The position numbers are program-made. Positions 1 to 3,000 of a stretch of 15,972 bases of DNA are shown piece after piece; positions within the stretch are counted from its first letter, which is position 1; each line of letters starts with the position of its first letter. This DNA is from Candidatus Izemoplasmatales bacterium (GTDB taxonomy: Bacteria; Bacillota_I; Bacilli_A; Izemoplasmatales; Hujiaoplasmataceae). Location of the stretch: contig JBFXGX010000034.1 of assembly GCA_050177605.1 (NCBI GenBank), positions 1 through 15,972 on the forward strand, written 5' to 3'.

Positions 1-3000
1 CTCACCATTAAGCACAATTTTTGATACTTGTTCTCCAATATCATTTTTACCAACAATTCTTATACCATCGCCTACCGATAAACTCTGCGTTAATAAAATC
101 GTTGTTTTTCCATAATGATACGATAATACTTTTCCAACAAGTACCCCTTGATGATTGGGTCTTGTCTCATAATTGATTTTATAAGGTTCTTCACCTAGAC
201 TATAACCTTTTGTAAAATCTCGATTAAACAGTTTTGCGAGGGTGTAGATGTCACTTTCTACCGAAGAAGACGCAACACCTCCGTAATATTCATCAATATA
301 CTTTCGATACATTTTAATGGTCTCAACAGTATATTCTAAACTTCTCATTCTTCCTTCTATTTTTAAAGAACAAACTCCTGCCTCAATCAGTTCTCCTAGA
401 TGTGGGAGTGTCATTAAATCCTTTGTGCTTAGTAAATAAGCTTCTTTATGAAACAATGTCTCATCTTTATACATTTCATATGGTAAACGGCAAGGTTGAG
501 CACACTCTCCTCTATTCCCTGAACGCGAACCATTCATCTGTGATAAATAACAGTTTCCAGAATAGGATACGCATAGCGCTCCATGAGCAAATATTTCAAA
601 TTCGATGCTTGTTTCTTGTCTGAACTCTTGGATTTTTTCGATACTTGTTTCTCTCGCTAAAATAATACGCTTCACACCGAGATCTTCCAAAAACTTCACT
701 TGATGAAGATTGAGTGTGTTCATCTGTGTTGAAACATGGATTTCTGTTTCAGGATAACGATGAATTAGTTGCCTTAACATGCCATAATCTTGAACAATAA
801 GTGCGTCTACATGAAACTTGATAAGCTCGTCTGTATATTCAAAAAAAGAAGATAGTTCATCTTCAAAAATAATCGTGTTGATTGTTACATAAACTTTGGC
901 ATTGCGTAGATGTGCAAACGTAATTGCTTCTTTGATTTGTTCAAGTGAAAAGTTATCTGCATTTGCCCGTGCGCCAAATCTTTTCCCGCCAATGTACACA
1001 GCGTTTGCTCCAGCGTTTATCGCGCCAATGAGTGCATCTATATTTCCTGCTGGTGCTAGTAATTCTACTTTTTTCATCGATATATCACCTGATTCTATTA
1101 TATCTTATTTTTAAGAAAAAAAGCCACAAAGTGGCTTCTATTCTTTATATATATTCGGTAAGTTATCCCTCTGATCGACTAAGATGCTTTCTATTTTTTC
1201 GAAGACTTCATGTTTTTTCATAGGGAAACAATCTTCACAAAAATGAGGCTTGTTACAGTTTGCGCAAAATACACTCGTCATGTCCTTATACTCATTGATT
1301 ATTGCCAAAGTGGCATTGATTGTCTCAATTTCATCGTGTCTTCTCAAGAAATAGTAAGCTTCTAAAACTTCTTCCACCACTTTGTCTTGTAATTCATCGA
1401 TTCCGCGTAATTCTTTAATACGATGACTGGTTTTCATATTTTCCTCCTCCTGTATGTATTTAATTAATATTATTATACCTCTAATTCATGAAAAGAAAAG
1501 GCTTTCATCAAAAAAACGAAAATTTTCTTACTAAGTTCAAATAAAAAAGCGCGTTTTACTTTTCGCGCTTTTCGAGTTTTAATTGATTCATTTGTTTATT
1601 ACTTTTTTTTGTATGATATAGTTTTCGGTCAACCGAAATGTACAGTCTATCAATAGTGTCTCCTGATTTCGAATACTCACAACCATAACTGAATTTAACA
1701 TTCCTGCATATTTCATCTTCTAAAGAAAATATATAATGATATAGATTGTCAATAATCTCATCTACGGTGCATTGATGTTCGATTACACATATAAACTCAT
1801 CTCCACCTAATCTAGCGGCCATCTTGCTTGGATAGATTGCGGCCACAAGTCCTTTTCCAAACTCACGCAATACTTCATCACCTTTATGGTGCCCGTAGGT
1901 GTCATTAATTTCTTTAAAATGGTCAATATCAATCGATAATAACTTAAAATTTGCTTGATTATCGATTCGCTCATTAACATAGTTTTCATAGCTTGAGCGA
2001 CTAAAAAGATGGGTTAAGTGATCAATTTCTCCATTGGTCGATTCAAAAAATATATAGATGACCAAAAGGCCGAACCCGATGGATGTCCAGGATAGATACA
2101 AACGTGTGTTTAACATCGATAAAAAAGTTCCAAGCATCGGTGTAAAGAAAAATGCAATAAATAAGAGGTATTGATGGTTTCTAATTCTTTTACGATTTTG
2201 AATCGCTAAAACAATAATATATACGTACGCCAAAAACAAAACAATATAGTGAATCCACTGATAATCTCCAGAAAAATAGGCATTAGTTCCTTTTTGAACA
2301 CCAAAATAAATTGGATAGAACAAATTGATGACTAACAATACAAAAGTAATAATCGTTGGAGTCATATAAAACCATCTTTTTTTTAGCCTTTTATACTGAT
2401 GAAAAATAACATAATCCATATAGTTTAAGAACATACCAACAATTAAAGGCGCGATAAGAATAAGGAGAAAATTAGAAGCATACTCGAGAAAATAAGCGCC
2501 TGGATAAGTTTGAACATCAAGAATCCAAGTAAGCGGCTCTAATAATACTGCAATGGCAGTAAGAATTAATGTATGATTTAAAAAATTCCGCCGTACACTG
2601 ATTACTTTGGATCGAATGAGTATGGTTCCAAATAATATCATTAACATTAGAAATGCATAAATATTCAATTGAAATTGCACCAAATAGTCCATATTCTATC
2701 CCCCTTTGCGCTTTCATTATAACATGTTGTTTATCAATTGCATCAATTATAACGAAAAAGTAAAGATTTAGAAAATAAAAAAGCTCCCTTCATCAGAGTG
2801 GTATTTTAGTATACCATATCTCCAACTTTTGGAAGCTATTTCAATCTTTGATGGCAGGGGTGACAGGATTCGAACCCGTACAAACAGTTTTGGAGACTGC
2901 CGTGCTACCGTTGACACCACACCCCTAGAAAAAGAGTCTACTAATATTATTAATGATTTACGTCTATTTGTCAAGGAAAATAAGACGTAGGTGATGAAAA

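Follow-up and report, generated by a model that had tools for sequence, protein, structure and literature searches.

The window analysed here is a stretch of 15,972 bp from a Candidatus Izemoplasmatales bacterium (genome G000, contig C34). The insertion target in the window is a tRNA-Trp(cca) gene at 2852-2926 on the minus strand, called by ARAGORN and matched by Rfam RF00005 with 57.7 bits. The ARAGORN call places the encoded CCA at 2852-2854 (minus), and by sequence reading a T-loop/T-stem motif lies 20 nt ahead of it at 2866-2874 (minus). A pattern match finds an 8-nt spacer after the CCA (2844-2851, minus), followed by the 25-bp left terminal inverted repeat of an IS3-family element (2819-2843, minus), which begins with TG. 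An earlier note on this DNA had described this end 8 nt past the CCA of tRNA-Trp, and we find it as described. The entire retained left end is 69 nt long (2775-2843, minus), with 90% identity to nucleotides 1-71 of a full copy in another genome (G015). Downstream of this remnant the window contains neither a transposase nor a right end. By analogy with full copies, the last three nucleotides of the spacer (2844-2846) would be the left copy of the target duplication.

An extended −10-like motif at 2808-2816 (minus), read by eye where the promoter scan made no call, is the probable transposase promoter. A Shine-Dalgarno-like stretch of the lost transposase gene (2784-2788, minus) pairs with the inverted repeat in the predicted hairpin, and in the G015 full copy the transposase ATG follows such a stretch at nucleotide 72. 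The sequence 2775-2843 folds as a long hairpin closed by a U-run (−25.6 kcal/mol, z −4.2). This fold suggests that the left end in the window likely acts as a surrogate terminator for tRNA-Trp. A simple terminator scan made no terminator call at this left end, and no RNA family of Rfam matched it. Among 30 tRNA-Trp loci of the host family, 28 are without an IS end, three same-genus genomes among them, and the other two have the end at +8; one of these two escaped the 23-mer pattern used below. A longer, unrelated hairpin-rich sequence stands behind tRNA-Trp in place of a simple terminator at one locus (L362, G059:C60).

A GGDEF membrane protein gene (1556-2692, minus; PF00990) lies immediately downstream and is context only. 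Positions 3030-12629 (minus) hold what we take, from the translations, to be a V/A-type ATPase-like operon with a 639-aa subunit-I-like gene; a second, 326-aa gene in this operon resembles the N-terminal half of the former. A 152-aa ORF at 15361-15819 (minus) opens with a hydrophobic segment, contains seven 17-residue repeats that are nearly identical, and gave only below-cut-off matches to Pfam. The gene immediately downstream of it (14002-15297, minus) encodes a 431-aa helical-repeat protein. The two genes together resemble a peptide-signal precursor with its regulator.

The G015 full copy agrees with what the earlier note had reported: it is 1480 bp long, with a single 449-aa frame, terminal repeats and a 3-bp duplication. 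Its transposase, and not the window remnant, scores 278.8 bits with NF033516 (IS3 transposase, cut-off 160), and stays below the cut-off of the IS481 model. It has rve domains and a DD(35)E triad (D296, D357, and E393, the last two 35 residues apart) that is invariant in 59 sequences. The predicted structure (pTM 0.40) has an integrase-like core whose fold matches IstA and retroviral integrases, and no extra domain appears in it. The N-terminus matches HTH_28/HTH_23, and the model shows two helical bundles and a long helix at residues 120-153. Imperfect inverted repeats of about 25 bp, with the ends TGA...TCA, bound the 1.48-kb elements. By its model match, triad, ends and duplication, the element belongs to the IS3 family. 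One reading frame of more than 200 aa fills the 1480 bp, and no helper gene is encoded. Two overlapping frames joined by frameshifting are usual, not universal, in the IS3 family; the transposase of the lineage described here (8-nt spacer) is a single frame, and that of a related lineage with 6-7-nt spacers has two overlapping frames. The first 200 residues of the transposase gave 120 protein matches with 55-100% identity, and the nearest full copies are found in bins of Candidatus Izemoplasmatales, Acholeplasmataceae, and other Mycoplasmatota or Bacillota. The IS3 element at C10 of G000 is a different one and only distantly related.

G000 has the three left ends reported before (C34:2843, C17:167, and C8:135) and no others at up to five mismatches. 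The end at C17:167 has CCA at −11 to −9 and is accompanied by a 109-codon transposase stub with 84% identity; that at C8:135 has ACA at the same positions. Across the host family, a 23-mer pattern with up to two mismatches was found in 36 of 71 genomes rather than the 37 counted earlier, and the reversed control again gave 0. All 95 family matches, against about a third in the earlier note, were fetched and comprise 90 left ends (one decayed, one ambiguous), four right ends and one contig end. CCA or ACA stands at −11 to −9 in 79 of the 90 left ends and TCA in two; per position, the G000 background is 1.3% for CCA and 1.6% for ACA. The remaining left ends are four that are off by one, two that are decayed but in register, and three true exceptions. 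Because only 79 of 90 left ends are exact, the rule is not strict, and the earlier wording was overstated in this respect. Behind tRNA or tmRNA genes called by ARAGORN, 37 of 39 left ends lie at exactly 8 nt and the other two at 7 and 9 nt. The family left ends have 66 distinct 8-mer spacers. That many tRNA types and tmRNA serve as targets was borne out: the 8-nt lineage hits at least 14 anticodon types and tmRNA, and the shorter-spacer lineages hit 18 anticodon types and tmRNA.

An additional pattern search added four places, two that fit the rule and two (L200 and L213) without a recognisable target. Three of five target-less left ends (G002:C41:13687, G063:C15:6924, and L200 in G019:C107) have ATT at −11 to −9, either by chance or as a second target. 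A separate right-end pattern gave nine matches in 7 of 71 genomes, compared with the 90 left ends, and none of the right-end matches whose flanks were inspected lies behind a tRNA end. The results on T-loop register, terminators and folds, 8-mer recurrence, mimicry, remnant length, and the comparison with the G015 full copy use an earlier list of 97 ends.

The geometry of insertion was read from full copies. A 3-bp duplication at +6 to +8 is present in 10 of 21 full copies of the 8-nt type with both flanks, a count read from printed flanks after removal of one duplicate and one 2-nt flank, and it is absent from the other 11. Several of the copies without duplication have one flank in common with another copy, as would be expected from recombination or a chimeric assembly. 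Further full copies of the 8-nt type have the 3-bp duplication in 3 of 9 cases, and those of the 6-7-nt type in 6 of 12, with one more of 4 bp and one of 5 bp. Reading by eye supplied the flanks of L278, L280, L297, L308, and L335, as well as the junction cases. In duplicated copies the right flank usually opens with a terminator-like hairpin, so the element lands between the tRNA gene and its terminator. Such hairpins begin about 4-8 nt from many insertion points and, being this close, may contribute to targeting.

Samples of the class and of another order were searched for related elements, with two genomes unscored. Outside the family, 38 loci scored 150 bits or more; four of these were without flank and one was disrupted, leaving 33 usable. 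Twenty-six of the 33 lie directly behind a tRNA or tmRNA gene, at 8 nt (n=3), 7 nt (n=15), or 6 nt (n=8), and the other seven lie 7-8 nt behind the CCA or ACA end of a junction or gene fragment; since related copies are not independent, such counts show consistency and not numbers of events. A third lineage inserts at +3 in four of four loci (L377-L380), three of which show a 3-bp duplication; the other 22 matches of the search for this lineage had no tRNA within 200 nt, three of them without a usable flank. The right ends of the +3 lineage end in CCA in two of three copies, so that the element ends like a tRNA gene. A quick tree of 109 catalytic regions unites all elements with 6-8-nt spacers in a single 57-row clade (SH-aLRT 96), within which the 8-nt group is a single branch with support of 100. 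A separate origin of the 3-nt lineage was considered: the free tree places it in the outgroup, yet the test does not reject a single clade (p-AU 0.53, with 77 rows left by thinning), and we therefore claim neither a separate nor a common origin. Spacer length tracks the transposase lineage, being 8, 6-7, or 3 nt. The 8-nt distance of the earlier note thus holds within one sub-lineage and is not general. Transposases down to about 40% identity use the same kind of site, each with its own spacer, and a single host family (f10) holds spacers of 3, 6, 7, and 8 nt. Oriented, fixed-distance targeting of tRNA and tmRNA 3′ ends far beyond the host family is strongly supported. Residues beside the catalytic D296 and E393 are common to both 6-8-nt groups and absent from the outgroup, which could reflect common descent alone.

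Less closely related IS3 elements do not sit at tRNA ends, and many of them were seen by eye in terminator-like hairpins with an A-run and a T-run. Nine distant copies in one genome (G432; L244, L254-L261) lie mostly within the loop of such a hairpin. The hosts of the targeting branch are small Mollicutes-like bacteria, and the insertions face the same way as the tRNA gene. Viral contigs yielded one locus (L246); this copy and L287 (G556) belong to different lineages and follow one and the same non-tRNA sequence at 7 and 8 nt. That sequence has CCA at its end and is probably another island end.

Most of the copies in the family are short: 51 of 70 with enough sequence keep 100 nt or less. The 126 distinct left ends have a median z of −4.7 relative to mononucleotide shuffles, and each is followed by a T-run. 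Bases of the stem covary, as at position 7 (65 A-U, 20 G-C, and 8 G-U), a result that leans toward structure because the partner arm was picked by best pairing. The predicted stem covers the ribosome-binding site of the transposase, and similar stems occur in non-targeting relatives. We infer from the folds that left ends are retained as substitute tRNA terminators. The insertions also account for a 70-nt hairpin that often stands behind tRNA genes in these genomes, which is then an IS remnant and not a new RNA.

The earlier note also counted cassette junctions among the targets. CCA or ACA forms the end of junctions A and B. Both have short direct repeats on their upstream side, and the sequences past them are those that also follow tRNA genes. 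A module of about 165 bp, which has imperfect inverted ends of 27 bp and carries three short direct repeats, has junction A as its right end (L089:241-405, L089:3723-3886, and L189:16649-16813). In G017 (L193:4944-9140), an island with a large serine recombinase sits at the CCA of tRNA-Cys and is closed by junction B, and the sequence past junction B matches, in register, the direct downstream sequence of tRNA-Cys in G015 (one example). Pairs of large serine recombinases lie near tRNA-Cys in G015 and G063, and serine recombinases were found in four of five genomes tested; tyrosine recombinases gave three matches in G000. Six of the 8-mers are found in more than one target class, and four of the six stand behind an intact gene as well as behind a junction; one array contains four junction-plus-left-end units. 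The junction-B island and the recurring 8-mers indicate that islands entering at the CCA may have carried IS ends away from tRNA genes to their places behind junctions. Since such islands could displace existing IS ends, the role of junctions as primary targets is unproven. Direct insertion behind junctions is also possible: L089, L247, and L279 keep duplications, and the junctions match the T-loop register in part.

We consider it somewhat better than even (a probability of roughly 0.55) that these elements form an IS3 clade whose transposase itself selects tRNA and tmRNA 3′ ends by reading the T-loop and CCA as DNA. The T-loop/T-stem motif is a candidate second recognition element in view of its in-register conservation across tRNA targets. 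The T-loop..CCA pattern occurs 53 times in G000, compared with 43 tRNA and tmRNA genes, and would be a specific enough signal. The T-loop may only accompany the CCA and not be read itself. Such reading of the T-loop would be a bacterial counterpart of box B reading in eukaryotes. The element would copy itself out as a circle by analogy with its family, for which circle geometry is described (PMC3299598, PMC2909936); joined ends were not seen here. The transpososome would then bind a two-part DNA signal, the T-loop motif and the CCA 20 nt on. A 3-bp staggered cut at +5/+8 past the CCA, as the duplications indicate, would place the left end toward the tRNA, the orientation observed. Insertion would take place between the gene and its own terminator and leave the tRNA intact, as seen in the copies. 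The left end is computed to fold as a hairpin with a U-run that hides the ribosome-binding site, and it may stop read-through. Later deletions would take the transposase, right end and old terminator and leave about 70 nt of left end, as in the window. Islands integrating at the CCA may then push left-end stubs behind their own far ends. The fuller account is tentative and, in our judgement, falls a little short of an even chance: a single IS3 transposase would read the universal T-loop and CCA DNA and measure 3, 6-7, or 8 nt, the habit would come from terminator-seeking relatives, and left ends would have been domesticated as tRNA terminators and mobile cassette leaders.

The transpososome could instead be recruited through transcription: RNA polymerase pausing at the terminator of the tRNA gene might attract it, as might the folded tRNA while it is being made or a factor of tRNA processing. 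Insertion occurs just ahead of the native terminator, tRNA and tmRNA have a fold as well as a sequence in common, and many outgroup IS3 copies lie in terminator-like hairpin loops, such as the nine G432 copies (by eye). However, the insertions keep a constant distance from the CCA, whereas the terminator's first paired base shifts by several bases; the clade does not use the terminators of other genes, and the spacer varies by lineage within family f10. We rate recruitment by transcription as unlikely. We think it less probable still that the transposase rides a large serine recombinase or another protein at tRNA attachment sites, with junctions A and B as the true targets. The serine recombinases in most genomes tested, including the one in the tRNA-Cys island, and the duplications retained at L089, L247, and L279 behind junction or fragment ends agree with it, and a comparable route through XerC has been raised for the ISAjo2 dif hunters (PMC10132070). 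Against this, the elements hit over 20 anticodon types in several orders, which would hardly suit a single integrase family, and many duplicated copies lie between an intact tRNA and a plain terminator.

IS911, also of the IS3 family, shows sequence-directed insertion next to its own ends, the target being its own repeat. A tRNA 3′ end could likewise be mistaken for the element's inverted repeat. The IS911 geometry fits the 3-nt lineage, where spacer and duplication have the same length and CCA closes two of three right ends, and the 8-nt group has its best repeat-to-target match at a spacer of 8. Mimicry is not supported for the 6-8-nt groups: their match does not exceed that of shuffled repeats (p 0.28 for the 8-nt group and 0.54 for the 6-7-nt group), a spacer of 6-8 nt is at odds with a 3-bp junction, and the repeat geometry is the same in non-targeting relatives. 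Junction spacers of the IS3 family are 2-4 bp (PMC3299598), in agreement with mimicry, and we nevertheless rate it as very improbable. The pattern might also arise with no targeting, from a few old cassette-left-end insertions spread by cassette recombination at the CCA, or from selection that lets only +8 insertions survive. The 8-mers that recur across target classes and the four-unit array point in this direction, and cassette spread probably accounts for some of the junction copies. An origin of this kind is already largely refuted as sole cause by the 66 distinct 8-mers in the family, the duplications at native terminators, and transposases that, with identities down to about 40%, occupy this kind of site at spacers of their own. 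Both IS-bearing tRNA-Trp loci are at +8 and the other 28 of 30 are without an IS end. An origin with no targeting at all is the reading to which we give hardly any credence.

Targeting of tRNA and tmRNA 3′ ends is a real behaviour within a known IS family and is apparently undescribed. A search of titles and abstract starts, outside ISfinder, most subscription journals and supplements, found no tRNA-targeting IS3 element and no simple IS homing to the 3′ end of many different tRNAs. The nearest named matches include IS150; this element, ISKpn8, ISEnfa3, and ISBce15 have similar lengths and 36-40% identity over the catalytic part, and they fall outside the targeting clade in a tree whose deep branches are unsettled. 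Narrow targets are known in the same family from IS1397, ISKpn1, and ISPsy8, which insert in REP or palindromic units with a specificity that experiments are reported to assign to their transposases (PMC1525189), a precedent for target choice by the transposase. Their targets are REP hairpins and not tRNA genes, and the word tRNA is absent from the main text of that paper. The ISAjo2 group of the IS1202 family resembles our element in its size of about 1.5 kb, single DDE transposase (441-457 aa), lack of a helper gene, single orientation, and fixed distance, which is 5 bp from the site (PMC10132070). Unlike our element, it has a TnsB-like transposase, a 5-bp duplication and an XerC/dif target (PMC10132070). 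Identity with the IS1202 family (TnsB-like, TGT...ACA, 5 bp) is ruled out by the IS3 model, the TGA...TCA ends, the 3-bp duplication, and the tRNA target. The clade also works like the promoter-seeking TnGBS and p-MULT 3 elements, which insert 15-17 bp upstream of sigma-A promoters; theirs is a Mutator-like transposase with a promoter target (PMC3942029). The 3-, 6-7-, and 8-nt lineages, together with the relatives in terminator hairpins, offer a ready series on how IS3/integrase-type transposases choose targets and measure distance.

tRNA genes are favoured landing sites of integrases and of multi-protein Tn7/CAST systems. Tn7-like elements and CASTs share with our element DDE transposition and the use of tRNA genes as safe sites, and at tRNA attachment sites they need TnsC with TnsD/TniQ or a CRISPR guide (PMC11406308). 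Membership among Tn7-like elements, with TnsC plus TniQ/TnsD or CRISPR inside, is ruled out, since a single frame of more than 200 aa fills the 1480 bp. Unlike in those systems, one protein here appears to serve many tRNAs and tmRNA. A 1.5-kb element that inserts without breaking the tRNA gene is a natural safe-harbour integrator. If the transposase does read the tRNA end itself, it would be a one-protein, guide-free, and non-disruptive means of integration at a site that every bacterium has.
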